NCBI GenBank assembly: GCA_037129895.1
Contig: JBAXUB010000001.1
Location: 18,947 to 82,946, forward strand
Reading direction: 5' to 3'
Length of the DNA stretch: 64,000 bases
Source of the DNA: Candidatus Tayloriibacteriota bacterium
GTDB taxonomy: Bacteria > Patescibacteriota > Minisyncoccia > Phycocordibacterales > PALSA-1337
The position numbers and the translations under genes are program-made. Positions 3,401 to 21,520 of the stretch are shown in pieces (positions within the stretch are counted from its first letter, which is position 1; the number at the start of each line of letters is the position of its first letter). The notes under the pieces are model-generated. The model worked only from the letters and a program-made list of their open reading frames with translations, searched no databases and was not told where the DNA came from.

Positions 3401-4501
3401 CTATACTACCTTGCCCACCTTATCTAGTGCTGCCCTCTCTGCCCTTTCGGCGTTCTTGTATTTCTCTATATCATGGATATATTCCATAAGTGCAGCCGAC
3501 AGAGGCACAGCGATGAGCGCACCCAATACTCCAGCGAGTTTCGCGCCAATAACTAAGGCAAGTATGACGACTATAGGAGAGATGCCCACGATCTTCTTGA
3601 CCACCAATGGATAGAATACTTGGCTTTCCAATTGGTAAATTATGAGATACAAGCAGACAACCAATATTCCTATACCGACTCCACGATCAGTGAAACTAAC
3701 GAGGATCGCTGGCACAGAGGAAATGATCGGCCCAAAGACCGGTATGATCTCGAGTAATGCAGCGAACAATGCCAATATGAGAGCATGTTTGACTCCTACG
3801 GATACGAGCATTATATACACGAGAACTCCGACGACTATTCCCAATATGATCTGCCCTTGTAGCCATAGAGCGATCTTACGCTGTGATCTCTTCCATAGAT
3901 CTATGATGTAATCATGATGTCTAACCGGTGCAACGATACGCAAGAAATCATCTACTCCATCCTCTTTTACAGCTAAATAGAATGACAGAACAATGATCAA
4001 AATGAAACTGAATAGACCGCCGAATATTGTACCAGCTGTTTGGAAAGCATTATCACTAGTACCGACGATCAAGGACTGTAAATAACTAACAAAATCTACA
4101 AGCGATAAAGTGTGTGAGCCGAGACCGTATGAGGATTGTCCTAGAGATACACCTGTGCTACTGATCGGACTCCACAATTCCTGCAAAGATATCGTCTCAG
4201 GTAATGACGAGACGAAGTTCATAGCATCTCGGACAATGATAGGCATGAAGAATATCAATATACCGGCCAAGAGTGCTGACGCAATGATATATACCGTGAT
4301 AACAGTGGCGACTCTATGAATCTTGCGCCTTTTCAATCGGCGGATGAGTGGCTCTATCGTCGATGCTATAACCACGGCCGCAACAACCACGAGGACGATA
4401 TCAGAAAGATAATATATAGCCGCTAGCAATATTAGAATGAGGAAAAATCTAATGATCGTTCCCGTATTTATCACGATGTGACTGTGTTTGGGAGTATCCA
4501 T
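3401..4501 (-). CDS. AI-2E family transporter (PerM-like membrane protein)
   Basis: Multi-TM protein with an LLEIIPVFGPIIS motif typical of the AI-2E/UPF0118 family. Confidence 0.75.
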   Translation of the reverse strand: MDTPKHSHIVINTGTIIRFFLILILLAAIYYLSDIVLVVVAAVVIASTIEPLIRRLKRRKIHRVATVITVYIIASALLAGILIFFMPIIVRDAMNFVSSLPETISLQELWSPISSTGVSLGQSSYGLGSHTLSLVDFVSYLQSLIVGTSDNAFQTAGTIFGGLFSFILIIVLSFYLAVKEDGVDDFLRIVAPVRHHDYIIDLWKRSQRKIALWLQGQIILGIVVGVLVYIMLVSVGVKHALILALFAALLEIIPVFGPIISSVPAILVSFTDRGVGIGILVVCLYLIIYQLESQVFYPLVVKKIVGISPIVVILALVIGAKLAGVLGALIAVPLSAALMEYIHDIEKYKNAERAERAALDKVGKVV

Positions 4502-4528
4502 AATATCTGATTATATCACACCCCTCAT

Positions 4529-5818
4529 CTATATATGAAAATACGACTTGAAGACTTCTGGATCTTTGAATTTACCGATAATGGCCATATTGAGTCCCCT
4601 ATTAACGAAAACTTCATTCGCCAATGCCTTTATATCTTCTGCGGTTACAGAATCCACCTTCTTCATGAATTCCTCCGGCGTATCTATCTTCCTCTTCAAG
4701 ATTTCCTGAAAACCACAATACTCCGCACGTGACTCCGATGTCTCAAGTTCGAGTAATGTAGTGCCGGAAATATAATCCTTGACCTTCTTCAATTCACCGG
4801 CACTGACGAGATCGGTTTTCAATATTTTACATTGATTCAATATCTCCTTTATCGCCTCCTCGACTCTGGCATTATCTACACCCGCCGAGATAGTGAGGTC
4901 TCCATGATCTGTGAACGGATCGTGTGAAGCACGAATGTAATAACATATACCGAGCTCATCTCTCATCTTTGAAAATAATCTCGAACTCATACCCCCGCCG
5001 AGCAGGGTTGTAAGTACGGTCATAGCTGGTATTCTCGGATCATTGATAGAGAACGTTCTCGAAGCAATCACGAGATGTGTTTGATCAGTTTCTTTGAATA
5101 AAGTCTTAATGGCCGGTTCCTCCTGGGACTCGACAACTGGGAGCTTCGGCTTATTAATATCGGTGGCAACAGTCGCGAACATCTTCTCTATTTTGTTGAT
5201 CGTGGCCTTTTCATCGAATGATCCGGAAACCAATACTGTCGTAGCAGAACTCACGTAATGATCCTTCCTATAGCTAACAAAATCAGCACGACCAAAAGAT
5301 TTGATATTATCCTCAGTACCCAAGACACTCCAACCTGCAGGACTATCGCCAAACATAAGCTCCGACAAGACTTCATGAACTCTGCGTTGAGGAAGATCGT
5401 TATACATGCGTACTTCTTCGATGATCACACCTTTCTCTTTGTTTATCTCTGACTCATCGAAAAGCGGATTCATATACATATCTGAGACAATATCCAATAT
5501 TTCATCCAAACGATGTGACGCCGCTTTGGCATAGTAGCCAGTGAATTCTTGAGTGGTAAAAGCGTTGTACTGAGCACCCACTGAATCTAATTCGCGAGAT
5601 ATATCGCTGGCTTTTGGTCTCCTCGGTGTACCCTTGAAAACCATATGCTCCAAGAAATGAGATATGCCATTCTGTTTCTTTGTCTCATATTTCGAGCCAG
5701 CTTCAACCATGACTAATACTGTGACCGAAGGATTCTCAGCCATTGGTACAGTAACGACTCTAAGTCCGCTTTTTAATATTGTTTTATTGAATTTCATATA
5801 TTCTAACAAACTACTCAT
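4529..5818 (-). CDS. M16-family (insulinase/pitrilysin-like) zinc peptidase
   Basis: Inverted zinc motif HFLEHMVF (HxxEH) near the N-terminus; about 430 aa. Confidence 0.8.
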   Translation of the reverse strand: MSSLLEYMKFNKTILKSGLRVVTVPMAENPSVTVLVMVEAGSKYETKKQNGISHFLEHMVFKGTPRRPKASDISRELDSVGAQYNAFTTQEFTGYYAKAASHRLDEILDIVSDMYMNPLFDESEINKEKGVIIEEVRMYNDLPQRRVHEVLSELMFGDSPAGWSVLGTEDNIKSFGRADFVSYRKDHYVSSATTVLVSGSFDEKATINKIEKMFATVATDINKPKLPVVESQEEPAIKTLFKETDQTHLVIASRTFSINDPRIPAMTVLTTLLGGGMSSRLFSKMRDELGICYYIRASHDPFTDHGDLTISAGVDNARVEEAIKEILNQCKILKTDLVSAGELKKVKDYISGTTLLELETSESRAEYCGFQEILKRKIDTPEEFMKKVDSVTAEDIKALANEVFVNRGLNMAIIGKFKDPEVFKSYFHI

Positions 5819-7151
5819 TCCCTATGCCGATTTTTTGCTTCAAATATTTGAGCAGATCAGCTTCGGTAACTCTCTCCTGTTTACCTGAATCACGATCTCG
5901 AACAGTTACACCTGTACCTTTCTCTATAGTCTCAAAGTCAACAGTGACGCAGAGTGGCGTACCGATCTCATCTTGACGACGATAACGTTTTCCTATATTG
6001 CCATTATCATCATAGTCAGTCATCGGTATCTCCTTCTGAATCGTCTTGAATATCTCCTCTGCTTTCTTTATGAGCTCCGGTTTATTCCTTAGCAACGGAA
6101 ATACGGCCACCTTATAAGGTGCTACCCTCGGATGAAGCTTGAGATATGTTCTCTTGTCACCACCTAAGTCATCTTCAGTATATGCATCACAGAGTATAGC
6201 GAGTACTGTCCTATCTAGTCCGAATGATGGCTCTATACAATGTGGTATGAATCTCTCTTTGGTTTCTTCATCATAATAGGAAAGATCAACTTTACTGAAA
6301 TCAGAATGCTGTTTGAGATCGAAATCTCCACGATAGGCCAATCCATATAATTCCTTTTTACCAAAAGGAAAATCAAACTCAAAATCGATAGTTCGTTTCG
6401 AATAGTGTGCACGGTCAGCCTGTGCCACTTCCAACTCGTGGACTTTGGAAGCGTCTAGCCCGACATCGGCCGTGAATGCGAGAACTTCTTTCCTGAAATA
6501 TTCAAATGATGTCTCCCACAGTTTTGGATTGACGAAATACTCTATTTCCATCTGTTCAAACTCGCGAGATCGGAAAAGGAAATCCCTAGGCGCTATCTCA
6601 TTACGGAAAGCCTTTCCTATCTGTGCCATACCAAACGGTAGTCTCGGATGTTGAGTGTCCAATACATTCTTGAAATTCACGAACATTCCCTGTGCAGTCT
6701 CTGGTCGTAGATATGATACCGACGAAGCGTCTTGGATAGCTCCAACATGAGTCTCGAACATCATATTGAACTTCCTCTCTTCACCCAAGTCTCCACCACA
6801 ATCTGGACACTTCTTTTTGTTAGTAGCATCACCTTCTATCTGATCGGCACGAAATCTATGCTTGCATTTCTTGCACTCGACGAGTGGATCAGCGAAGCCT
6901 GATGCGTGACCACTAGCTTGCCAGACTCTCTGATTCATGAGGATGGCTGCATCAACTCGGAACATGTTTCTCTTCCCCACAACGAAGCGGCTGTACCAAG
7001 CATCTTTGATGTTAGATTTCAACGCTTCTCCGAAAGGACCATAGTCCCATGTACCGGCTAAACCGCCATATATCTCTGAACCTTGGAATATAAAACCACG
7101 TCGCTTACAAAGTGCGACTACCGCATCCATTTTGTCTTCTTGTTTATTCAT
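5811..7151 (-). CDS. glyQS: Glycyl-tRNA synthetase, class II alpha2 type
   Basis: N-terminus ...RRGFIFQGSEIYGGLAGTWDYGPFG... is characteristic of dimeric GlyRS. Confidence 0.9.
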   Translation of the reverse strand: MNKQEDKMDAVVALCKRRGFIFQGSEIYGGLAGTWDYGPFGEALKSNIKDAWYSRFVVGKRNMFRVDAAILMNQRVWQASGHASGFADPLVECKKCKHRFRADQIEGDATNKKKCPDCGGDLGEERKFNMMFETHVGAIQDASSVSYLRPETAQGMFVNFKNVLDTQHPRLPFGMAQIGKAFRNEIAPRDFLFRSREFEQMEIEYFVNPKLWETSFEYFRKEVLAFTADVGLDASKVHELEVAQADRAHYSKRTIDFEFDFPFGKKELYGLAYRGDFDLKQHSDFSKVDLSYYDEETKERFIPHCIEPSFGLDRTVLAILCDAYTEDDLGGDKRTYLKLHPRVAPYKVAVFPLLRNKPELIKKAEEIFKTIQKEIPMTDYDDNGNIGKRYRRQDEIGTPLCVTVDFETIEKGTGVTVRDRDSGKQERVTEADLLKYLKQKIGIGNE

Positions 7152-9820: not shown

Positions 9821-12800
9821 TTATCTAATATCCAACTTCACATTCAATTCACCGACAGCCTGACTCTCCCCAGTCACACTCGAGAACGATATACCTTTGA
9901 CTGAAGTAGCTGCAGAAATCGCCTTCTCATTCTTTTCAATAAATGTCTTGCCGGCTACATCCGTATCAACTATGAGAGATACCTTATCATTCACGGTAAA
10001 GCCCCTATCCTTGCGAAGATCCTGAATAACGCGTATGAGTTCACGAACTGTTCCCTCTTCTTTCAGTGCTGGAGTTATAGCGATATCTAACTCGACTTCT
10101 TGAGTGAGACCCGCCAAAAACATAACTTCCTTTACATTGACTTCATCCATGATGAGTTCACAGAACTCTGGACTGAGTCCCGCCGACTTCTCTGTATTAT
10201 TGACCGTCAATTTTGCCAAAGGTTGTCTAACGTTGATCTTGGCTTTCATACGGGCTTCGAGACCTTTCGAAGCAATGTCTCTAACTATTTGCATGTTCTC
10301 GATCAATTTCGCATCGGATTTTCCAACTTCTGGCCAAGACGTGAGATGTACGCTATTAGTAGAGCCGAACAATTCCTGATGTAGATACTCAGCATAGAGT
10401 GGAGTAAACGGCGCCATCAATCTCGCTAGAGTTGAGAGCACGTATCTAGTAGTAGATAGAGCCTGTATCTTATCTACACCATCATTCTTGAACCGATCTC
10501 TAGATCTACGCAGATACCATTGAGAGAGTTCAGCTATAAAATCACGGATCGCCCTGGTCGGTTCAAAGAATTTGTAATTGTCTAGATTTTTCGTTGTTGT
10601 TTCTATCAACTGACTTAGTTTGGCGATGATCCATCGATCCAAGATATTGGAAGACAACGATCTGTCCACTGCCCTCTTTTCTAATGTAGCATCACCCAAC
10701 TCCTCGACACTTCTATTCTCATATAGTTTATAGAATGCTGTAACATTGGATATGAGATTGAATACTTTCTTCACAACCTCATCAACAGTTTTCTCATCAA
10801 AATTCTTTGAATCTCCTGGCTGATTGACGGAATACATCCAAAAACGTAGTGCGTCTGCTCCATATTTATCCATCATATCCCAAGGACTAACGACGTTGCC
10901 GATGGACTTACTCATCTTCTTGCCTTTGGCATCCAGGATATGTCCCAAACAGATTACATTCTTGTACGCCTTACCTTTACCCATGATCGCTCCGATAGCA
11001 TGCAATGTATAGAACCATCCACGTGTCTGATCGATCGCCTCCGAGATGAAATCCGCCGGATAAGCAATGTCCCGACCGATCTCTTCATTCCCGCCCAACT
11101 CATGCTCCTGCGAAAACGGCATCGATCCGGAATCGAACCAGACGTCCAAAACTTCCCTAGCACGACTCATCGTCCCGCCACACTGGCAATCCAACTTTAC
11201 ATCATCTATGAATGGTTTATGTAGATCAAGCTCATAATCCGCATTGTGAGGCAAGATAGAAAAATCCACTGGTCGCACTTCTGCGTTTGCGATGAAATCT
11301 TCCTGCTTTCGGTAGATTCTAGCACTATCGATATCATGACCTGCTGCAGCTGCAAACAATGTATAGGCCGGAGTCTCATGAGTGACGATCAATATCGTTT
11401 TGCCCTCATATTTACTTTCCATATCATATAGGAATTCACCCATACGTCTCTTTATATCCATATAGTCTTCCCCTCCTTCTGGTTTCCATAACCATCGGTC
11501 ATTCTCGCCGCATGCACGAGCCAATTCATCCACACCCTTCCCATCGAAAATTCCCGCACCATATTCTCTGATCCGATCATCTACAATAACTCTCGACGAA
11601 TCGAGGCCGACTACATCACGTACTATCTCAGCAGTTTCTCTAGTTCGTAGGAGTGGAGATGTAAAGATAAGATCGATTTTTGATGATACCAACTTCGCAG
11701 CAGAATCACTCACGTCTTTCTCGCCTTTCTCGGTCAAGTTGATGATGGAAGTAGCCGCAGTATCTAGAATATTCCTAACATTGTTCTCTGCTTCGCCATG
11801 TCTCATGACCAAGTATTTGTTCTTCGATCTCTTGGCCAATTCAGAAACAACACCAACCACTCTAGTAGATTTACACTTCTCACATGTCCATACAGGCAAC
11901 GGCGTCCCCCAATAACGCTCTCTCGATATTGCCCAATCCTTGATCTCACGTAGCCACTCACCAAAACGACCCTCCTTGATATGTTCGGGTTCCCAATGTA
12001 TCCCCTCATTTTCCTTAACTAATGTGTCGCGCAAACTAGACATCCGCAAATACCATGAATCGCGAGCGAAATATATGAGAGGTGTATGACAACGCCAACA
12101 GAATGGATATGTGTGTTCATACTTTTCCTTGGCAAACAAAAGTTTTCGTCCAGCCAAATCCTTTATGATAGTGACATCCGTGCCAGGATCTTTGACGAAA
12201 AGACCAGCCAATGATCCGGCCTCTTTCTTGAAAGTACCATCATCATTCACCAAGTGGAATTTCGGAAGCCCTACCTTCGTCCCCAATTCAAAATCATCCT
12301 GACCATACATAACTGCTATATGAACGATTCCAGTTCCGTCAGACGTTGTAACGAACGGAGCGGCGTAGACTCTATATGCATTCGCTAGCTTCTCCTTTTC
12401 GGTACCTTGCACATTGTCCTTGAGAAAGGGATACAAAGGGTTATAGGCGAGACCTACCAATGTTCCACCTTTCACAGTTTCCAACACGCTCGCATTTTCA
12501 AAATGTGACTTCAATGCTTCGAACCTCTCTTTCGCCAAAATCACCACTTCCCCGCTTGCGACTTTTACTTTTACATATTCGATATCGGCATTAATCGCTA
12601 AACCAACATTCCCTGGCAACGTCCACGGAGTAGTCGTCCATGCCAACAAGTATGTATTAGCTTCACCAACGACTTCAAATTTTACATAAACTGATAGATC
12701 TTTGACCGTCTCATATCCTTGCGCCAATTCGTGTGAAGAAAGACCCGTCCCACAACGTGGGCACCACGGAACTACTTTGTAGTCTTTATAAAGTAGTTTC

Positions 12801-13345
12801 TTGTTTTCAGCAGTTTTGATTATACTCCAAACCGACTCTATATATTGCGACTTGTAAGTTATATATGGATTCTCTAGGTCCACCCAATAACCCATACGAT
12901 CAGTGAAGTCCTCCCATTCATGTACGTACTTCCAGACACTCGCTTTGCACTTCTCATTGAATAGGCCTATGCCGTATGACTCTATTTCTTTTTTGGACTT
13001 CAGCCCGAGTTCCTTTTCTACTTGTAACTCAACTGGCAGACCATGTGTATCCCATCCACCTTTTCGACGTACATGATAACCCTGCATCGTCTTGTATCTA
13101 GGAATTGCATCCTTGAAAGCACGCGCCTCTAGATGATGGATACCTGGTCTACCGTTAGCTGTCGGAGGTCCTTCATAAAATACGAACTCGCCCTTTGGAG
13201 ACTCCTTGCCCAATGACTTTTCGAAAACGCTATTCTCTTTCCAATACTTCAAAATCGCCTCTTCACGCAATGCATGGGGACTTTTCACTGAATTTGTTGA
13301 ATACTGGCTATTCTCTCGATCAGTTTTGTTGTTTGGAAGAGGCAT
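9821..13345 (-). CDS. ileS: Isoleucyl-tRNA synthetase with an inserted histidine-phosphatase (PGAM-like) domain
   Basis: PGIHHL (HIGH) and KMSKSIGN are present, with an editing domain. Residues about 508-700 (YLVMRHGEAENN...LIVTHETP...) form a nested RHG phosphatase domain. Confidence 0.9.
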   Translation of the reverse strand: MPLPNNKTDRENSQYSTNSVKSPHALREEAILKYWKENSVFEKSLGKESPKGEFVFYEGPPTANGRPGIHHLEARAFKDAIPRYKTMQGYHVRRKGGWDTHGLPVELQVEKELGLKSKKEIESYGIGLFNEKCKASVWKYVHEWEDFTDRMGYWVDLENPYITYKSQYIESVWSIIKTAENKKLLYKDYKVVPWCPRCGTGLSSHELAQGYETVKDLSVYVKFEVVGEANTYLLAWTTTPWTLPGNVGLAINADIEYVKVKVASGEVVILAKERFEALKSHFENASVLETVKGGTLVGLAYNPLYPFLKDNVQGTEKEKLANAYRVYAAPFVTTSDGTGIVHIAVMYGQDDFELGTKVGLPKFHLVNDDGTFKKEAGSLAGLFVKDPGTDVTIIKDLAGRKLLFAKEKYEHTYPFCWRCHTPLIYFARDSWYLRMSSLRDTLVKENEGIHWEPEHIKEGRFGEWLREIKDWAISRERYWGTPLPVWTCEKCKSTRVVGVVSELAKRSKNKYLVMRHGEAENNVRNILDTAATSIINLTEKGEKDVSDSAAKLVSSKIDLIFTSPLLRTRETAEIVRDVVGLDSSRVIVDDRIREYGAGIFDGKGVDELARACGENDRWLWKPEGGEDYMDIKRRMGEFLYDMESKYEGKTILIVTHETPAYTLFAAAAGHDIDSARIYRKQEDFIANAEVRPVDFSILPHNADYELDLHKPFIDDVKLDCQCGGTMSRAREVLDVWFDSGSMPFSQEHELGGNEEIGRDIAYPADFISEAIDQTRGWFYTLHAIGAIMGKGKAYKNVICLGHILDAKGKKMSKSIGNVVSPWDMMDKYGADALRFWMYSVNQPGDSKNFDEKTVDEVVKKVFNLISNVTAFYKLYENRSVEELGDATLEKRAVDRSLSSNILDRWIIAKLSQLIETTTKNLDNYKFFEPTRAIRDFIAELSQWYLRRSRDRFKNDGVDKIQALSTTRYVLSTLARLMAPFTPLYAEYLHQELFGSTNSVHLTSWPEVGKSDAKLIENMQIVRDIASKGLEARMKAKINVRQPLAKLTVNNTEKSAGLSPEFCELIMDEVNVKEVMFLAGLTQEVELDIAITPALKEEGTVRELIRVIQDLRKDRGFTVNDKVSLIVDTDVAGKTFIEKNEKAISAATSVKGISFSSVTGESQAVGELNVKLDIR

Positions 13346-13480
13346 GATATTGAATCACCGAATAATGGTATTTATGGCATTCATTCTAGCATTTTTTTGA
13401 TTAATTGGAATAAAAATGCTCAGAACAGCTAAAAGCGATTCTGAGCGAGTGAAGTCGAGAGACCAGTACAACATGTGTCG

Positions 13481-13921
13481 TTAAGCCGGCACTCGTAACC
13501 GTGACAAGATGCACAACACTTCATCAACGAGGAGTCTGTGTCCGGACTTGACCATCGGGATTTCGTAACGCAGACCATTTAATCCCTGGTCATGCCAGAT
13601 GCGTATCTCCATGAACTCTGCAGCTGATTCAGCCTTCTTGAGATCACAGAGGACGCTAGGATCGTATAACTCGAAGCTGGCGATCCAAGCTGCTTGCATA
13701 TGCTTAACATCAGCTGGATCGATCTTGAGACCAACCCAACACCCGGTCTGTGGTAAAGTCTTCTTCACCGGGCAACAACAACGAAATCCTGGCCGTGTTT
13801 GCTCAATGTGCGCAATTTCGATCGGAAACTCGGCCAACTCTGTATACAACAGAGGTACGGCCCTAGGTATCAATCTATTCATATGTAATTCTCCTTCTGC
13901 CGAAACTCTACCATTAAACAA
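13481..13921 (-). CDS. Hypothetical Cys-containing protein (FRCCCPV) of higher GC than its neighbours
   Basis: 146-aa ORF co-oriented with the flanking argS/ileS. No family recognised. A competing plus-strand ORF at 13599..13946 is less likely. Confidence 0.35.
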   Translation of the reverse strand: MFNGRVSAEGELHMNRLIPRAVPLLYTELAEFPIEIAHIEQTRPGFRCCCPVKKTLPQTGCWVGLKIDPADVKHMQAAWIASFELYDPSVLCDLKKAESAAEFMEIRIWHDQGLNGLRYEIPMVKSGHRLLVDEVLCILSRLRVPA

Positions 13922-13932
13922 ATATAAATCAA

Positions 13933-15666
13933 CTACATCTTCCTAGGAACTTTGATCCCCAGTATCCACAAACCGCGAGTCATGGTTTTCAAGAATGCTT
14001 TGGTAAGTTCAACCCTGTAATCAGACATGGGATCTTTTTTATCGAGAATAGTCTCCGCAGCATAGAAACTATTGAAACTTCCTGCCAATTGAACCAAATA
14101 ATTGGAAACGATCTGAGGAGCGTATTCAATATTGGCGCGCTCAGCAATATCTGGAAAACGAACCAACAATTTTTCTAGTACACCAACATGATCTGGTTTT
14201 TGTATTGCTAATGACGCAGATTTCGATCCTCCTGCCTTCTCAATGATCGAATTGGCTCGTACAGCTGAATATTGTAGATACGGACCAGAGTCCCCTTCAA
14301 ATGATATAGACGCTGCAGAATCAAATATTACATTACCACCGATCGCCTGACGCAATATCGTATATTTGATCGCTCCAACTGCTATATCTGTAGCGATCTC
14401 GTCACTTTCATCGGCAGTGAAATTTCGTTCAGCGATCCTCTCTATCACCATTTTTTTCATCTCACCGATCAATGAATCCGCAGTTATAACATTACCTGTT
14501 CTAGATGACATTTTGCCTTGAGAAAAACGCAGCATTCCATGACCGATATGGAATGTCTTTCCACCATTTTTTTCATCAATCAGAGACAAGACCTTTCTGA
14601 TGACTTTGAAATATTCATTTTGCTCATTGGCTGTCACGACGATCGATCTTTCTACATTTGGATATTTGCGAAATTTTGTAACATTCAAGCCAACATCTTT
14701 GGTCTCATAAGTTGGCAAACCGCGAGAATTGATAAATACTCTAGTATGTAAACCATACTCTTCCCCTTTGAATACAACCGCACCGTCGCTTTCCTCGAAA
14801 ACTTCGGTGGCTCCCCGTCCTTTCATATGTGCCCGAACTACTTCTAGCCCAATAGCCGCTACTTCACTCTCAAATATCTGTGTATCAAACTTTGTACCCA
14901 GAATTCCATATAGCAATTGGAAGTGATCCAAACTCCATCCCCTACCCTTGTCATACAGATCATTCACTGACTGATCAGACTTGTCATATATGACTTGATT
15001 GAGCTCATCAATCTCGTTTTTCACCGTCGGATCAGCATCATAGGCTTTTGTCCCTTCAACATACATCTTCCCCAAGAATTGCGTCCTCTCCTCGATAGGT
15101 GCAGCTTCGGATGGAATCTCTTCCAGGTGTTGTTGCATCGCCCAGATCGATTTTGCAATATGTAGACCGATATCAGACGGATAACAGATCCTAATTATTT
15201 TCTTGCCAGAAAACTCTATAAGTCTAGAAACTGATTCCCCTATCGTATTGGACATGATGTGCCCGATATGGAAAGCTTTGAAGGTATTTGGATCGGTATA
15301 TTCTATGAGTACCTCACCCGCATTTTCCTTATGATCCGCACCTACACCACCGATCACGTGATCAGTCTTTGCAATATTCAAAATCTCATCGAAGAAAATC
15401 TGATCCTTCAATTTGAAATTGATAAATCCGACTCCAGCAACCTGCACATCCACGATGAAATCAGGTCTGACATTTTTCATATCTGCTACGATTTTTTCTG
15501 CCAGAACTTTCGGTGACGTACCCAATTGTTTCGAGTAGACAAGCGCCACATTGGTCGTAAGATCACCGTGATCCATGTTTTCTGGATAATCCAACTTGAT
15601 CTGCGGCTGAGCTACACCTAGGGACCTCAGTGATTTTTCGACTAGATTTATCAGTTCTTGCTTCAT
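13933..15666 (-). CDS. argS: Arginyl-tRNA synthetase
   Basis: HIGH motif (FHIGHIMSN), length 577 aa, overall ArgRS pattern. Confidence 0.9.
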   Translation of the reverse strand: MKQELINLVEKSLRSLGVAQPQIKLDYPENMDHGDLTTNVALVYSKQLGTSPKVLAEKIVADMKNVRPDFIVDVQVAGVGFINFKLKDQIFFDEILNIAKTDHVIGGVGADHKENAGEVLIEYTDPNTFKAFHIGHIMSNTIGESVSRLIEFSGKKIIRICYPSDIGLHIAKSIWAMQQHLEEIPSEAAPIEERTQFLGKMYVEGTKAYDADPTVKNEIDELNQVIYDKSDQSVNDLYDKGRGWSLDHFQLLYGILGTKFDTQIFESEVAAIGLEVVRAHMKGRGATEVFEESDGAVVFKGEEYGLHTRVFINSRGLPTYETKDVGLNVTKFRKYPNVERSIVVTANEQNEYFKVIRKVLSLIDEKNGGKTFHIGHGMLRFSQGKMSSRTGNVITADSLIGEMKKMVIERIAERNFTADESDEIATDIAVGAIKYTILRQAIGGNVIFDSAASISFEGDSGPYLQYSAVRANSIIEKAGGSKSASLAIQKPDHVGVLEKLLVRFPDIAERANIEYAPQIVSNYLVQLAGSFNSFYAAETILDKKDPMSDYRVELTKAFLKTMTRGLWILGIKVPRKM

Positions 15667-15997
15667 GCTTCAATATTAACAGAGATACTCGAACTTCATC
15701 ATATTGACAATGTGCAGAAAAAGAGTATAATAGTAAATGGCTAGGAGGTTTTGAGGTCCAATCTCCTGTACTCGCTCTTCCTCGAGAGTCCAAACTATAA
15801 TCCCGGAATGAGTCCGTACTTAATTAGGGGTACTTTGGTTCCTCACCGACACAATGAATACTTAGGCCACCTGCCGAGTTGAACGGCGAATTCTTCATTG
15901 ACGGCCCCACACCTCAGATGCACCCTCTTCTGGTTCGAAATATCAGGAAACTCCGTAAAAAGAGTCCTGATACATTATTCACTAAAGAGGGCGCTAC

Positions 15998-16030
15998 CAC
16001 GAGTGATCCACTAGGACTTCGTGTTTTTTT
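15998..16030 (+). terminator. Hairpin (CACGA...TCGTG) followed by T7, a plus-strand intrinsic terminator candidate
   Basis: cacgagtgatccactaggacttcgtgttttttt. Confidence 0.4.
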
Positions 16031-16034
16031 ATAT

Positions 16035-16097
16035 TTACTTACAAACACTAGGAAAAACCGGCTTCTTCAAGACAGCATCGATCTTTCCTGCAATTGT
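16035..16097 (-). repeat. Degenerate copy of the glyA 3' end (encodes ..AGKIDAVLKKPVFPSVCK*), a direct repeat of 17213..17275
   Basis: About 80% nucleotide identity to the authentic glyA C-terminal codons, reading on the same strand. Confidence 0.8.
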
Positions 16098-16126
16098 TTA
16101 CTGAACGAGGCATAGCAATATAATTC

Positions 16127-16138
16127 TTGACTTGTCAA
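16127..16138. promoter_or_regulatory. Perfect palindrome TTGACttGTCAA 32 bp upstream of the sigma-factor start, a candidate -35/operator
   Basis: Seen directly in the sequence. Contains a TTGAC -35-like hexamer. Confidence 0.3.
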
Positions 16139-16169
16139 TAGTGAATATGCTAACCTCTCAACAGACAAA

Positions 16170-17138
16170 TTGATGATACTTTTTAGCAGAACTATGAAAA
16201 CTCAAAATGACGGCTCCGACCTGTTACTATACAGTCGGGCAATCCACGAACATCCCCTACTGACAGAGCAAGAGGTAGTCGAGCTCTGCAAACAGAGGAC
16301 TGCCGGAAGCCTGGAGGCATACGACAAACTAATCCTGCATAACTTGAGATTAGTGATATTCATAGCGAAAGACTTCTCAAATAGAGGACTGGAGTTGTCC
16401 GACGCGATCCAAGAAGGAATGATGGGGCTCATGATCGCTATTCAGCGATTCGACCCATCTATAGGTCTATCGCTCAGCGGTTATGCGGGCTTGTGCATAA
16501 GAAACAAGATGCATCGGGCACTTTTCAATCAAAGCCAGGGTATTCGCATTCCTGTTCACTTTCGTGAGACTTTTCACAAAATCAAACGAATCCAGGACCA
16601 ACTACTCACTGTATTAGATAGGGAGCCAACATTCGAAGAGATCGGCCACGAACTTAACAAGAGTGCCGCTTACGTTTCGAATGTTCTTGACTCTATGTTG
16701 AGGACACGTTCCACATCGATCGACGCCGAAATAGAACTCGATGGTGACACTTCTCTAGACGGCAGACACCAATCAATCGCTGACCAACAAGTCCTCGACC
16801 CGTCAATGGCACTAGATGCAAAAGAGACCTTGCATATACTGAAATCACGCCTTGAACAATTGCCTGCTGATATCACAAACCTCGACAACCTCAAAGAGAA
16901 ACACCGAGAAGTGTTCCGGATGCGATACAATTTTGATCACCAGTATACACCTCTTGTCAGTCTCGTAGATATAGCGAAAGAGTTTGACATGAGCAAACAA
17001 AGAATCCAACAGAGTCTCTGTTTCACCTGGCGCAAATTGAACAAGACCGGTGTACGAGGTTCTGACCGTTGGGTCGTCACCACGCTCGACCGGATCGATG
17101 AGCTAGAGTCGATCGTCGCTGCTATTGAAAACAATTGA
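16170..17138 (+). CDS. RNA polymerase sigma factor, sigma-70 family (regions 2, 3 and 4 present; no region 1.1)
   Basis: Region 2 DAIQEGMMGLMIAIQRFDP and a region 4 HTH (LVSLVDIAKEFDMSKQRIQQ). Confidence 0.85.
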   Translation: MMILFSRTMKTQNDGSDLLLYSRAIHEHPLLTEQEVVELCKQRTAGSLEAYDKLILHNLRLVIFIAKDFSNRGLELSDAIQEGMMGLMIAIQRFDPSIGLSLSGYAGLCIRNKMHRALFNQSQGIRIPVHFRETFHKIKRIQDQLLTVLDREPTFEEIGHELNKSAAYVSNVLDSMLRTRSTSIDAEIELDGDTSLDGRHQSIADQQVLDPSMALDAKETLHILKSRLEQLPADITNLDNLKEKHREVFRMRYNFDHQYTPLVSLVDIAKEFDMSKQRIQQSLCFTWRKLNKTGVRGSDRWVVTTLDRIDELESIVAAIENN

Positions 17139-17167
17139 GCCACGAAAATCGACCTACAACAATACAC

Positions 17168-17200
17168 AACCAGACCAATTAAGCGGTCTGGTTTTTTATT
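17168..17200 (+). terminator. Intrinsic terminator of the sigma-factor gene
   Basis: aaCCAGACCaattaagcGGTCTGGttttttattt. Confidence 0.7.
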
Positions 17201-17212
17201 TAATGATGCAAA

Positions 17213-17275
17213 CTATTTGCAGACCTGAGGAGAAACCGGCTTTTTCAAAACAGCATCGATCTTTCGAGCAATCTT
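17213..17275 (-). repeat. Authentic glyA 3' end; direct-repeat partner of 16035..16097
   Basis: See the paired repeat feature. Confidence 0.8.
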
Positions 17276-18430
17276 TACAAAATCTTTCTCTTTCCTACCA
17301 CGAGTAGTCTCTGCGGCGGTGCCAAGTCGTATGCCTGACGGGTCAGCTGGTGGACGTGTGTCGAAAGGAATGGCGTTCTTGTTGACGATGATACCTGCTT
17401 GTTCGAGTCTAGTACTAGCCTCTTTACCAGTAACTCCGCCAGCACCATTTTCATTCACATGACCGTCATGCCAAGTATCTACCAAAACTAGATGACTATC
17501 CGTGCCACCAGAGATGACCCTCCAACCAAACTTTCTCAGGTGTTCCGCCAAAACTGCAGCATTCTTCACAACTTGTGCAGCGTATTTCTTGAATTTTGGA
17601 CTAGCTGCTTCTTTGAGTGCCACTGCAACAGCAGCAATCTGATTTATATGTGGTCCACCCTGTAGTCCAGGAAAAACTGCCTTGTCTATCTTCTTGTCCA
17701 ATTCCCTATCATCGCGTCTCACGAATATGAGAGCTGCGCGTGGGCCACGGAGAGTTTTGTGTGTAGTCGTCGTAACAATATCAGCATATGGAAAAGGTGC
17801 AGGATATGCACCACCAGCTACCAATCCAGCGATATGAGACATATCAACCATGAGTAAAGCCTGAGCCGCGTCCGCAACTTCCCTCATCTTGACCCAATCA
17901 ATAATACGAGGATAGGCCGTATAGCCAGCAACTATGATCGCCGGCTTTTCTGCCACAGCCTTTTCTCGAAGCTGATCGTAATTCAATACTTCAGTTGTCT
18001 TATCTACACCATATGGCACCTGAGTCCAAAACTTTCCTGTAGCAGAAACTTTGTGCCCATGCGTAAGGTGTCCTCCTTGATCGAGTGACATCCCCATGAT
18101 CTTACCGCCTTGTGGGACTAACGCGGTATAGACTGCCAGATTCGCTGGTGAACCCGAGAGAGCTTGCACGTTTACATGCCACTTATCATGATCGAGCCCG
18201 AATAATTCTAACGCCCTTTCCATACACAGACTCTCTATCTTATCTACTATCTCATTACCCCCATAATATCTCTTTCCCGGATAACCCTCCGCATATTTAT
18301 TGGTAAGTTCTGAGCCAAGTGCCTCTAACACATCATTCGAAACATAATTCTCCGAAGCTATCAGGTTGACGACTTTTTTCTGTCTATTCTTTTCTGACAA
18401 TATTAATTTTTTTATTTGTTTATCTTTCAT
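17213..18430 (-). CDS. glyA: Serine hydroxymethyltransferase (start at internal Met MKDKQIKK)
   Basis: LIASENYVS...YAEGYPGKRYYGG signature; PLP-lysine region present. Confidence 0.9.
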   Translation of the reverse strand: MKDKQIKKLILSEKNRQKKVVNLIASENYVSNDVLEALGSELTNKYAEGYPGKRYYGGNEIVDKIESLCMERALELFGLDHDKWHVNVQALSGSPANLAVYTALVPQGGKIMGMSLDQGGHLTHGHKVSATGKFWTQVPYGVDKTTEVLNYDQLREKAVAEKPAIIVAGYTAYPRIIDWVKMREVADAAQALLMVDMSHIAGLVAGGAYPAPFPYADIVTTTTHKTLRGPRAALIFVRRDDRELDKKIDKAVFPGLQGGPHINQIAAVAVALKEAASPKFKKYAAQVVKNAAVLAEHLRKFGWRVISGGTDSHLVLVDTWHDGHVNENGAGGVTGKEASTRLEQAGIIVNKNAIPFDTRPPADPSGIRLGTAAETTRGRKEKDFVKIARKIDAVLKKPVSPQVCK

Positions 18431-18751
18431 ATGTATATCGTAACATAACATACCGCCTACAAAAAATGGTCCGCTACACCCAGTGTGTAACGGACCACCA
18501 ACCACCCATACAAAGGGAAGAAATCAACGACACACGACGCGACTTTAGTGACAAAATAGAATTTGTCCAATCCTTAGCCACTCATACGGTGATATGTCGT
18601 TTTTGTTTGACCATTGAAGGTCTGCGAGCCAAATGGCCCAGTACGGGACGCGAACTCATAGTTCGAATCTCTGATGAAAAGATTACTCCTCGTCCGCAAT
18701 TAATGCAAGCTAGTTATACACACGTTATCCACAGGCTATTCCGTGACTCGT

Positions 18752-19402
18752 CTACTTGAGCAGTTTGCGCATCTCCTCCAAGAAATCACTTTTCACTTCC
18801 TCGAAAGGCCTATTGGCGTCTATCGTAACATGCGGCACTTTCTTCAGAAATTTCAAATACCCCTTCCTCACCTTTTCGTGGAATATGATCTTTCTATTAT
18901 CGAAATGATCATACTTGGTAGTATTTCTGTTCGACTCATTGCGAGATCTCGCACGACGCAGACCAACCAGAGGATCCACATCCACAAACACATAGAGATC
19001 TGGGACATGTACCAACTTGTCACGAAGTAACCAGAAGATTTCCTCGAGATCGCCATTTGTTTGAGCTGCGACTTGATATGCAAAAGAAGAACCATCAAAT
19101 CTATCGGCCACCACCGACATTCCCGATTTCAATGACGGCTCGATCACATTCACCACATTGTCGAAGCGGGCGGCAAACATAAGACACAGTGTCGTCTCAG
19201 CCGGCGCAGTCTTCGCTAGAGGATTCTTGAGTGCAGCATTCCTGATGATCTCCGCATAAGGCGATCCTCCAGGTTCACGAGTTATGAGAGCAACACCCGG
19301 CATCTCCTTCGCGAGAGCGGCCATGAGTGAAGATTTACCGGAACCTTCTCCACCTTCAACAGCGATGAACATCGGTCTCTTTTTATTTCTCAATTTTTTC
19401 AT
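18752..19402 (-). CDS. tmk: Thymidylate (dTMP) kinase family dNMP kinase
   Basis: P-loop FIAVEGGEGSGKSS and TREPGGS motifs. Confidence 0.85.
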   Translation of the reverse strand: MKKLRNKKRPMFIAVEGGEGSGKSSLMAALAKEMPGVALITREPGGSPYAEIIRNAALKNPLAKTAPAETTLCLMFAARFDNVVNVIEPSLKSGMSVVADRFDGSSFAYQVAAQTNGDLEEIFWLLRDKLVHVPDLYVFVDVDPLVGLRRARSRNESNRNTTKYDHFDNRKIIFHEKVRKGYLKFLKKVPHVTIDANRPFEEVKSDFLEEMRKLLK

Positions 19403-19447
19403 GATTTTACTTTCTACATCACTTATACCAGAGAGAGATGACAGCGT

Positions 19448-19930
19448 CTACCTCTTCCTTGTGAATAACTCAGTCGCTCCTTCGACTAGGAAGACTCTAC
19501 TTATCCCCGCTTTGATCATTCGATCCCAGCAAGGCTTGCAACACCACCAATGACCATACAGGTATAGATCGGCTCCCCTGACTTTACCGCCACCATGTCT
19601 CGATATAGCATCCTTGACCGCCCTTGATTCTGCATGTTGTCGACAAGAAGCACAACCTGGACAAAGCCAATACTTCTGTCCTGATGGTATTTTCAACAAT
19701 CTTCTCACACAAAACCTTTCCTTATGAAAAGTTAGCAGTTTACTGTTCTTGATTGCTGACTGATTGGCACCTTTTCCTAGAATAACACCATCCCTGACGA
19801 CGACAGCACCCGTCGGGTGTTGTGTATCCGTTGACTTTTCCTCGCATAGCTTCATCGCCTCCTTCATATACAGATTGTTCGATGATACATATTCAACACT
19901 CCTGCCTTCTGGCATATATGGATAATTCAT
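19448..19930 (-). CDS. dCMP deaminase family protein (zinc-dependent CDA fold)
   Basis: HAE zinc motif (CRQHAESRAV) and PCxxC (CCKPCWDRM), plus an additional CPGC zinc site as in dCMP deaminases. Confidence 0.75.
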   Translation of the reverse strand: MNYPYMPEGRSVEYVSSNNLYMKEAMKLCEEKSTDTQHPTGAVVVRDGVILGKGANQSAIKNSKLLTFHKERFCVRRLLKIPSGQKYWLCPGCASCRQHAESRAVKDAISRHGGGKVRGADLYLYGHWWCCKPCWDRMIKAGISRVFLVEGATELFTRKR

Positions 19931-20006
19931 TTTGATAAATCCGCATTAAGAACCATTAACTAATAATTGTAAACTGTTTACTATTTCTTTAATTATATAT
20001 AATAGA

Positions 20007-20849
20007 ATGATTATGACCAAGTTTGACCAAATATACCAAGACATTGTGAAAAACATTATGAAGAAAGGCATGGTCGAGTTCAGTGAGAGAACTGGACACG
20101 AAACGAAAGTTCTAGTCGGTGTACATTTCCAAGTCGACATAGAGAAAGACGGCTTCCCCATCCTCACACTCCGCAAGTCGCCGATAAAGATGTTCGTCGC
20201 GGAACAAGTATGGTTTTTGTCTGGATCTAGAAAGCCAGAGGACTTCCTCCGAAATTATACGCACATATGGGATGACTTCACCAATCCAGGCGATGTCGTC
20301 ACTGTCGCATACGGATATAGATGGCGTAAACATTTTGGCAGAGACCAGATAGGACTATTAGTCGATCTATTAAAAAAAGAACCAAGCTCTAGACAAGCTG
20401 TCGTAGTAACATGGGATCCTGCACAGGATGGATTATCTATCGTAAAAAAGAAAAATGTTCCTTGTCCATATACATTCACCGTTAATATCGTTGCTGGCAG
20501 ATTGCACCTGCACAATATAGTCAGATCCAACGATGTAATGCTCGGATTCTCAGCGGATGTCCCAGGATTCGCACTACTCCAATGTATTCTCGCTCAAAAG
20601 CTAGGGGTGAGACCTGGTATATACTCTCACTCGATTTCCAATGCTCATATATATGATACACATTATGACGGTGCGAAAGAGTTGATCAAGAGGAAAAACA
20701 AACACAAGAAGATAACCCTGACTTTACCTAAGGACGCCTTTGACAGAGCAGAAAAGAAAGATCCGACACTCGTCGACCAGATAGTGGAAAACCTCGGAAA
20801 ACAATATAAACCGATGGAACCGATAAAGGGCTTGAAATTAATATTATAA
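20007..20849 (+). CDS. Thymidylate-synthase-fold (ThyA family) enzyme with Asp at the Asn177-equivalent. Possibly a dCMP methyltransferase or hydroxymethylase rather than canonical TS.
   Basis: Gap-free by-eye alignment to E. coli ThyA: ERTGHET, GFPILTLRKS, VWFLSGS, the VPCP nucleophile and VRSNDVMLGFSADVPGFALL. Confidence 0.8.
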   Translation: MIMTKFDQIYQDIVKNIMKKGMVEFSERTGHETKVLVGVHFQVDIEKDGFPILTLRKSPIKMFVAEQVWFLSGSRKPEDFLRNYTHIWDDFTNPGDVVTVAYGYRWRKHFGRDQIGLLVDLLKKEPSSRQAVVVTWDPAQDGLSIVKKKNVPCPYTFTVNIVAGRLHLHNIVRSNDVMLGFSADVPGFALLQCILAQKLGVRPGIYSHSISNAHIYDTHYDGAKELIKRKNKHKKITLTLPKDAFDRAEKKDPTLVDQIVENLGKQYKPMEPIKGLKLIL

Positions 20850-20861
20850 CCAACACACCCA

Positions 20862-21491
20862 ATGTCTATCATCACAAAAACTGAAATAGTAGAACTGATA
20901 AAGAATGGTGTACTTTCCATACGACCAGCTCTGGATAAGTTCCAATTACAAGAACACTCTATAGACCTACGTCTCGGCTATACTTTCATGATACCAAAGA
21001 TGTGGCACATGACTCCGAAAGGCCGTGAATCATTGGACATCACCCATTTCGATAAGCGTAACCATGAATACTTCGAAGTTGTCGAACTCGAACAAGGACA
21101 GTATTTCGAATTATTACCGCAGGAATACATCCTCGTCTCAACCTTAGAGACGATAAAGATGCCTAACAACTTGATGGGCGTTCTCTACCCGAGAGCTTCG
21201 ACCAATCGAAAAGGGCTTTCATTGGACCTTTCAGGAATAATAGATGCTGGCTATGACGGACAGTTAGTATTGCCTATCAGGAACAATACCCGCTCTCAAG
21301 CTATCAGACTATTCCCTGGCGAACGCCTATGCCAAGTTGTTTTCCAGGAGTTGAAAAGTTCTGTTACACCGAAACCAGGCAAATATCATCAGCGAGACAT
21401 CATCGAGGGTGTTGTCACTGAAAATAGAGAGGAGGCTGATCTCATATCCAGTGGCGATATTAAAGTGTTAAAGGAAAAGTTTAAGGTGTAA
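20862..21491 (+). CDS. dCTP deaminase/dUTPase-superfamily protein. Motif III is dUTPase-like and lacks the Dcd catalytic Glu.
   Basis: Dcd-like N-terminus. GIIDAGYDGQLVLPIRN...FPGERLCQVVF closely matches dUTPase motif III. Confidence 0.7.
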   Translation: MSIITKTEIVELIKNGVLSIRPALDKFQLQEHSIDLRLGYTFMIPKMWHMTPKGRESLDITHFDKRNHEYFEVVELEQGQYFELLPQEYILVSTLETIKMPNNLMGVLYPRASTNRKGLSLDLSGIIDAGYDGQLVLPIRNNTRSQAIRLFPGERLCQVVFQELKSSVTPKPGKYHQRDIIEGVVTENREEADLISSGDIKVLKEKFKV

Positions 21492-21520
21492 AATTACTGA
21501 ACGTATATTAATAATCGGCT

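Follow-up and report, generated by a model that had tools for sequence, protein, structure and literature searches.

Two copies of the glyA 3' end around a sigma-70-family gene in a Taylorbacteria contig: a probable recombinational gain of a two-gene module, reduced later to its sigma factor

How does a stand-alone sigma-70-family gene come to lie between two copies of the end of glyA? The question is raised by a stretch of 64,000 nucleotides from Candidatus Tayloriibacteriota bacterium (the window, hereafter), which is part of a 137-kb metagenomic contig, ENA ERZ27300156 k141_672758 (locus L001). The sigma protein is labelled at NCBI as coming from a metagenome-assembled genome of Candidatus Taylorbacteria. 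Along the window, argS (minus strand) is followed by a 368-nt spacer, the sigma-70-family gene (plus strand), glyA (minus strand) and tmk. Gene gain in bacteria of the candidate phyla radiation (CPR) is usually inferred from presence and absence alone, and here it could be reconstructed almost base by base. We consider it likely that the locus, taken as a whole, is best explained by a two-gene module that recombined into the end of glyA and supplied a glyA end of its own, with one of the two genes (Y) being lost later and the other encoding an accessory sigma factor.

The gene targeted, glyA, encodes serine hydroxymethyltransferase (17213-18430, minus strand; Pfam SHMT, E = 1.9e-160). Its last 20 codons and its TAG stop codon (17213-17215) make up copy A (17213-17275), the functional 3' end. 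Copy B (16035-16097) likewise consists of the last 20 codons and a stop codon, here TAA (16035-16037). Both copies are on the minus strand and in the same frame, with the stop codon at the same position; up to that stop, copy A reads IARKIDAVLKKPVSPQVCK and copy B reads IAGKIDAVLKKPVFPSVCK. Without gaps, positions 16036-16094 (B) and 17214-17272 (A) are identical at 48 of 59 nucleotides (81%) with a spacing of 1178 nt, and the second-best ungapped match of the same 59-mer on both strands of the whole window reaches 31/59. The homology ends at the stop codon; on the glyA side, it may be longer by about 8 nt with one 1-nt indel. A duplication of the glyA 3' end at about 80% identity and about 1.18 kb apart, as claimed in a preliminary description made from the letters of the window, is therefore real.

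The same description took a sigma-70 factor with its own terminator to be the only gene between the copies, and this is true of the window: the single gene there encodes a sigma-70-family protein of 314 aa (16194-17138, plus strand), carrying regions 1.2 to 4 and a clade-specific C-terminal extension in Pfam searches and alignments. It is followed by an intrinsic terminator with a 9-bp stem and six T's (17168-17199, plus strand), the hairpin of which (17168-17193) folds at -14.6 kcal/mol (z = -7.2). This terminator is 93-98% identical in two other contigs, L002 and L086, and is part of the insert. The junction between the sigma gene and glyA was present in four further contigs from other samples (L002, L086, L087, and L088), and the complete structure with copies A and B was also present in L086, which excludes an assembly artefact.

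Which of the two copies stands at the original end of glyA can be read from the relatives. Scanning with the glyA protein, with each species represented by a single genome, gave 80 Paceibacteria/Taylorbacteria-like loci (glyA identity of 64-85%), and their synteny was read by tblastn with the proteins of the window. In about 65 of the 80, glyA is followed directly by argS on the same strand, and usually then by ileS; this is the empty site that the preliminary description had expected. In the window, argS (13933-15666, minus strand; Pfam tRNA-synt_1d, DALR_1, and Arg_tRNA_synt_N) forms the far side of that site. The spacer between glyA and argS measures 240-520 nt in the closer relatives. No sigma homologue was detected within 6 kb of glyA in any of the 80 loci, including those of the nearest relatives (84-85% glyA identity), and none of them has a second copy of the glyA end (the best match to a locus's own glyA end was 36/60). 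The duplicated arrangement is not universal among the relatives and is very unlikely to be ancestral. A sigma gene at glyA occurs only in the window, L002, and L086-L088, a small sub-clade to which a scan of metagenome contigs with the sigma protein added no further relative. Copy B occupies the place where glyA ends in the relatives, a few nucleotides from the terminator of a transcription unit native to the spacer (X), and therefore marks the original end of glyA. Such an orphan glyA end beside X shows that an insertion happened. Together with the lack of a sigma gene at this locus in the 80 relatives, the closest included, it argues against the alternative that the order glyA, sigma, argS is ancestral and that the sigma is the primary one, lost or moved in the relatives.

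Unit X itself is a putative non-coding RNA of about 300 nt (15738-16030, plus strand). It lies on the strand opposite to glyA and argS and is made up of a promoter, about 300 nt with no conserved open reading frame (ORF), and a hairpin (approximately 15998-16023) followed by seven T's (16023-16029), which end 6 nt from the stop codon of copy B. The promoter (15704-15731, plus strand) is a perfect sigma-70 consensus, TTGACA-16-TATAAT (12/12), and so is that of X in L086, though the spacer sequence has diverged. Similar promoters were found in 14 of 36 short spacers, a count that includes the window and L086, and the whole layout from promoter to terminator, on the same strand and abutting the glyA stop, was found in L086 and in 10-14 of the 36 short spacers of relatives. 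The terminal hairpin is conserved with covariation (-9 kcal/mol in the window and -14 in L086), and the RNAalifold consensus of the four alignable members of X predicts 52 pairs, of which 18 show compensatory changes. Rfam scans of the window, the X region, and 11 related loci, using gathering and E-value thresholds, matched no known RNA family. Candidate identities for X as RNase P, transfer-messenger RNA (tmRNA), 6S, T-box, or signal recognition particle RNA had no support, in that Rfam gave no match and ARAGORN found no tmRNA. As judged by its conserved architecture and predicted fold, X may be a new non-coding RNA of Paceibacteria. It is located at 3958-4288 in L086 and occurs also in the spacers of L008-L011, L015, L017, L025, L028, L031, L032, L041, and L069; the motif GGTTCCTCACCGAC is common to the X units of the glyA-argS spacers. 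Elsewhere in the window, a second perfect promoter, TTGACA-17-TATAAT (36521-36493, minus strand), lies directly after tRNA-His and drives an ORF of 112 aa with a Shine-Dalgarno sequence (36383-36045, minus strand), a sign that this genome makes use of canonical promoters.

As X belongs to the original locus, the hairpin that precedes copy B can be assigned to it as its terminator and is not part of the insert. A plus-strand hairpin with a T-tract does precede each copy (T6 at the sigma gene and T7 at X), as had been pointed out, and of the two only the sigma terminator came with the insert.

The sister contig L086, which was obtained from a different sample through proteins clustered with the sigma of the window, shows what the insert used to contain. 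Its order is ileS, argS, X, copy B (4290-4352), Y (4353-5831, minus strand), the sigma gene (6001-6948), and glyA. In blastn comparisons, L086 2152-4361 aligned with window 13933-16106 and L086 5925-8324 with window 16118-18514. The approximately 1563 nt of L086 between the aligned blocks contain Y and are missing from the window, which thus corresponds to L086 minus this segment. What is left of Y in the window is its last two codons and stop, GTT CAG TAA (16098-16106, minus strand), and the deletion junction is at 16106/16107. By this comparison, the original insert was Y together with sigma, about 2.7 kb long, and the sigma-only state of the window is secondary. We had considered L002 as a separate arrangement devoid of copy B, and rejected this: L002 is L086-like, and its contig ends inside Y.

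Y is a secreted protein of 492 aa with a signal peptide and CPxGYxCTP repeats, for which no Pfam or PHROG family was matched. Compared with its few homologues, it has a complete C-terminus; these homologues constitute a small family of secreted proteins of the same organisms. Two of these, P0317 and P0318, showed a near-identical N-terminal leader of 75 aa and only ~35-40% identity over the rest. The contexts of the homologues are unrelated, and the genes called there include no sigma gene.

A promoter-like site, TTTACT-16-TATAAT (16097-16124, plus strand; 10/12), spans the junction left by the deletion of Y and, to judge from its position, may be a hybrid promoter that serves the sigma gene. 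On the plus strand of L086 upstream of the sigma gene, no promoter site matching at least 9 of 12 positions was found. Downstream of the junction, a conserved leader of the sigma gene that includes the palindrome TTGACTTGTCAA extends over 16118-16193 (plus strand); homology with L002 and L086 begins at 16118.

Did the insert bring its own glyA end, as had been proposed, or was the end of the resident gene copied on the spot? To date the differences between copies A and B, those common to the window and L086 were taken as old and those specific to one lineage as young. Nine differences are old (positions 6, 7, 46-48, 51, 54, 57, and 60 of the 60-nt repeat). They are found only in the two arms and leave a clean core of 38 nt, a distribution that nine randomly placed differences would rarely give (simulated P ~3e-4), and 6 of the 9 affect third codon positions. 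In the last four codons, silent transitions alone separate the copies (GTC TGC AAA TAG in A, GTT TGT AAG TAA in B). The young differences sit in the middle of the repeat. Between the copies B of the window and L086 there are 7 differences in 60 positions, most of them non-synonymous, and copy B is therefore a relic without coding constraint. In total, A and B diverge by 16-20%. The mostly silent arm-and-core pattern points to the joining of two diverged functional glyA ends, not to decay in place, so that the claim of an insert with a replacement 3' end is supported: most likely, on this pattern, the insert carried its own glyA end. The C-terminal tail of glyA, KKPVSPQVCK, is specific to the sub-clade of the window; both copies encode a tail of the form KKPV.P.VCK, and the relatives are devoid of it. 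This common tail suggests that the two ends had their origin in the same lineage.

Duplication of the target in place, for instance through fill-in of a staggered break or a switch of template during replication, would do without a donor end, copy B having simply decayed afterwards. Such an origin would agree with the lineage-specific tail on both copies, with a total divergence compatible with the age of the insertion, and with the freedom of copy B from coding constraint today. Neutral decay, however, predicts neither the confinement of old and mostly silent differences to the arms nor the clean core, and we know of no transposition mechanism that gives target duplications of ~65 nt. We therefore regard duplication in place as improbable and prefer a donor end carried by the insert.

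The history of the locus after the insertion is one of exchange. The identity of the window to L002 and L086 is a mosaic of 60-100% blocks. Over 16100-21500, blocks of 60-75% alternate with blocks of 97-100% within a few hundred bases. Alternating blocks of this kind speak strongly for homologous recombination being frequent among these CPR lineages. One tract of 91-99% identity (16420-17450) takes in the greater part of the sigma gene together with its terminator, copy A, and the final 240 nt of glyA. When the window is compared with L086, the proportion of synonymous differences (pS) is 0.21 in the sigma gene and 0.48-0.66 in glyA, argS, and tmk, which implies that the alleles of the module are younger than the divergence of the backbone. 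Their apparent youth fits a transfer between lineages by flanking recombination.

We then have to consider whether the insert is itself a mobile element, which the word cassette in the preliminary description implied. We found no integrase or transposase between the repeats, nor any in the genes called up to 10 kb from glyA in the contig of the window; in L086, none of the genes called up to 6 kb from the sigma gene belongs to a recombinase family. The closest comparison is with classical cis-mobilizable elements (CIMEs), decayed derivatives of integrative elements, segments of 1.2-13 kb that carry cargo genes and no integrase and are located at the 3' ends of rpsI, fda, and rpmG, the genes that also host the integrative elements of the ICESt3 family in streptococci (PMC7563491). 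As in those elements, direct repeats surround a small cargo segment at the 3' end of glyA, this gene is kept intact by the incoming replacement end, and no integrase is encoded inside. The size range of CIMEs covers both the 1.2-kb insert of the window and the original one of ~2.7 kb. Unlike in those elements, no integrase, relaxase, or tandem integrative and conjugative element (ICE) or integrative and mobilizable element (IME) is nearby, the site was used once among more than 80 species, and the arms of the repeat resemble two functional glyA alleles and not a specialised attachment (att) site.

The repeats could accordingly be read as attL and attR sites, flanking a site-specific integrative element that has the 3' end of glyA as its target, is CIME-like in having lost its integrase or never having had one, and depends on a recombinase encoded elsewhere. 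Direct repeats of ~65 nt whose core is identical and whose arms have diverged, at the 3' end of an intact housekeeping gene, are the classic layout left by tyrosine integrases, integrase-less elements with cargo at gene ends have already been described (PMC7563491), and the module has apparently moved between lineages. Yet no integrase gene was found in or near the insert in the window or L086, nor any tandem ICE or IME; among the called genes searched, no tyrosine or serine recombinase was found in the segment or in a tandem partner. The 80 relatives contain neither the element nor a repeat at the end of glyA (0/80; best match 36/60), so the site is not a recurrently used one, and flanking homologous recombination, frequent here, accounts for the movement equally well. 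An att-site origin thus seems unlikely to us. Without an integrase or transposase and without recurrence in the relatives, a mobile element, as the word cassette would have it, is not supported; the insertion part of that claim is upheld by the empty site and by L086. The event looks like a one-off recombinational gain and not the footprint of an active mobile cassette.

The homology of the repeat breaks off abruptly at the stop codon of Y, and at its opposite end it runs on into glyA. A joint of this asymmetric form is known from homology-facilitated illegitimate recombination, in which linear DNA is joined by homology at one end and illegitimately at the other (PMC3240628). The resemblance extends to the anchor in glyA and the other joint at the stop of Y, to the addition of foreign genes with possible duplication of a piece of the anchor, and to the mosaic recombination tracts of these genomes. 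That process was defined by experiment, whereas only the end product is seen here, and a Campbell-type crossover of a circle gives the same product.

The sigma factor remains to be placed. All its Pfam domains were above their cut-offs (Sigma70_r2, 1.3e-14; r3, 2.9e-11; r4, 5.5e-9). In a HMMER search of 1.84 billion cluster representatives, only its own cluster matched closely, and the best other match was 35% identical over the full length. The nearest family is a small set of sigmas of 428-452 aa (36-39% identity), the 430-aa family hereafter, and the sigma of the window has the same C-terminal extension as this family and the same insert separating regions 3 and 4. It is devoid of the N-terminal domain of ~120 aa of that family and starts with a region similar to region 1.2. 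Phylogeny of the sigma had been recommended as a check, and in the resulting neighbour-joining tree the 314-315-aa type is the long-branch sister of the 430-aa sigma family of the clade. By the alignments and this tree, the sigma is a divergent sister of the clade's own sigma family, and not a foreign or phage gene. The earlier view of it as acquired cargo holds for the acquisition and has to be amended as to the cargo, originally Y plus sigma, and as to any foreign source.

Several residues expected in a housekeeping sigma have changed. In all three sub-clade sequences available, the tryptophan dyad of regions 2.3/2.4 is absent, with LC in place of WW (YAGLCIRNKMHR versus the canonical YATWWIRQAITR), IRN..H replaces IRQ..T, and, in region 4.2, SKQRIQQ replaces TRERIRQ. 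Most of the 430-aa sigmas of the clade and all outgroups retain WWIRQ-like and TRERIRQ sequences. From structural work on sigma-70, we take the altered positions to be those that melt and read the -10 element (the -12 contacts) and those that read the -35 element. The gene is under purifying, though relaxed, selection, with a ratio of non-synonymous to synonymous differences (pN/pS) of 0.24-0.29 versus 0.09-0.19 in neighbour genes. Among NCBIfam models, the protein scored under every curated cut-off for RpoD, RpoS, RpoH, SigB/F/G, and FliA (e.g., RpoD_Cterm, 147 bits versus a cut-off of 354; PRK09210, 155 versus 572), and only the sigma-70 superfamily model was passed (83.7 versus 42.9). The RpoD cut-offs are a weak test for CPR bacteria because the 430-aa sigma of the clade fails them too (208 bits).

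These features bear on the ancestral order raised above, under which this protein would be the primary sigma. Its name at NCBI (RpoD/SigA), the purifying selection on its gene, and the lack of any other sigma in the window (a second one was sought along the 64 kb) would agree with such a role. However, the 430-aa sigma of the relatives sits elsewhere: three members of that family adjoin a DEAD/ResIII helicase, among them P0194, which carries the annotation of primary sigma in the same genome that gave L047, a locus with an empty glyA-argS site. In addition, the tryptophan dyad and the -35-contact residues are gone from the sigma of the window, yet consensus promoters persist. In the genome of the window and in L086, the hexamers of the 12/12 promoters are conserved and their spacers divergent. 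The window shows no enrichment of sites with one mismatch or none (3 found versus 2.2 expected), and as evidence we used only the two perfect 12/12 sites. Considering these points along with the orphan glyA end, we find an ancestral order with a primary sigma hardly credible.

Because perfect consensus promoters persist, we infer that a canonical sigma is encoded elsewhere in the genome and that the one at glyA is accessory. As far as its residues and these promoters allow one to judge, it is probably an accessory factor with a changed promoter specificity and not the housekeeping sigma. Two 430-aa homologues from ENA, P0197 and P0198, belong to other samples and so have no bearing on this genome. 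A vacated donor site, that is, a helicase gene without an adjoining sigma, was sought and none was present. The protein resembles group 2 and group 3 alternative sigmas in having regions 1.2, 2, 3, and 4 but no N-terminus similar to region 1.1, in its altered promoter-contact residues, and in being linked to a divergent neighbour, Y, which could be its target. It differs from them in falling below all curated cut-offs and in keeping the C-terminal extension of the 430-aa sigma of Paceibacteria. A bolder reading would make Y and sigma an integrase-less mobile regulatory islet that moves among Taylorbacteria lineages by means of the glyA-end repeats, and the sigma a new CPR class with its own promoter code that, at the extreme, replaces the housekeeping sigma of this lineage; we consider this improbable.

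Put together, the preferred explanation, a module recombined into the end of glyA, would run as follows. The ancestral locus of this Taylorbacteria/Paceibacteria group would have consisted of glyA, a short spacer, argS, and ileS, with X in the spacer in the nearest relatives. In the ancestor of the sub-clade, Y and a divergently transcribed sigma gene with its own terminator would have recombined into glyA about 65 nt before the stop codon. The incoming DNA would have borne a slightly different glyA 3' end, from a related lineage with the same unusual tail, and thereby left glyA intact, as copy A. Copy A would then combine the body of the recipient gene with the distal arm of the donor, and copy B would be the orphaned end of the recipient, an untranslated relic beside X. 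We infer both the enzymology of the insertion and the identity of the donor. The exchange would most likely have taken place through the 38-nt stretch common to both ends, either by a single homologous (Campbell-type) crossover or by homology-facilitated illegitimate recombination of DNA taken up by the cell, with the illegitimate joint at the stop codon of Y. Later, the module would have passed among diverged lineages by flanking homologous recombination, and the lineage of the window would have deleted Y (~1.56 kb), leaving the sigma gene alone between the repeats.

Several points weigh against this explanation. The silent-site argument is built on nine old differences and on parsimony from two lineages only, and a model in which copy A is selected and copy B neutral makes the excess at third positions only mildly unusual. 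Later recombination tracts, which are frequent, may have swapped one arm after a duplication in place. No donor arrangement, be it Y and sigma beside an unduplicated glyA or a free circle, was sampled. As for the accessory role of the sigma, NCBI names the protein RpoD/SigA, and the second, canonical sigma that this role implies was not seen within the 64-kb window.

The event is a well-resolved and fairly ordinary case of a known kind of regulator gain. It indicates that minimal genomes can gain a regulator by recombination with related DNA, no mobile-element machinery having been detected in or near the insert. Two features of the locus are worth annotating, the narrowly distributed sigma with changed promoter-contact residues and the strongly promoted ~300-nt unit X.

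Two further observations concern the other side of argS. A segment of ~530 nt between ileS and argS (approximately 13400-13930) is present in the window and absent from L086, making it a second indel at this locus; it contains orf146 (13481-13921, minus strand), which encodes a protein of 146 aa of no known family. The isoleucyl-tRNA synthetase that follows (9821-13345, minus strand; 1174 aa) carries a histidine-phosphatase domain (His_Phos_1) inserted in the middle of the protein, as does that of L086 (1179 aa).

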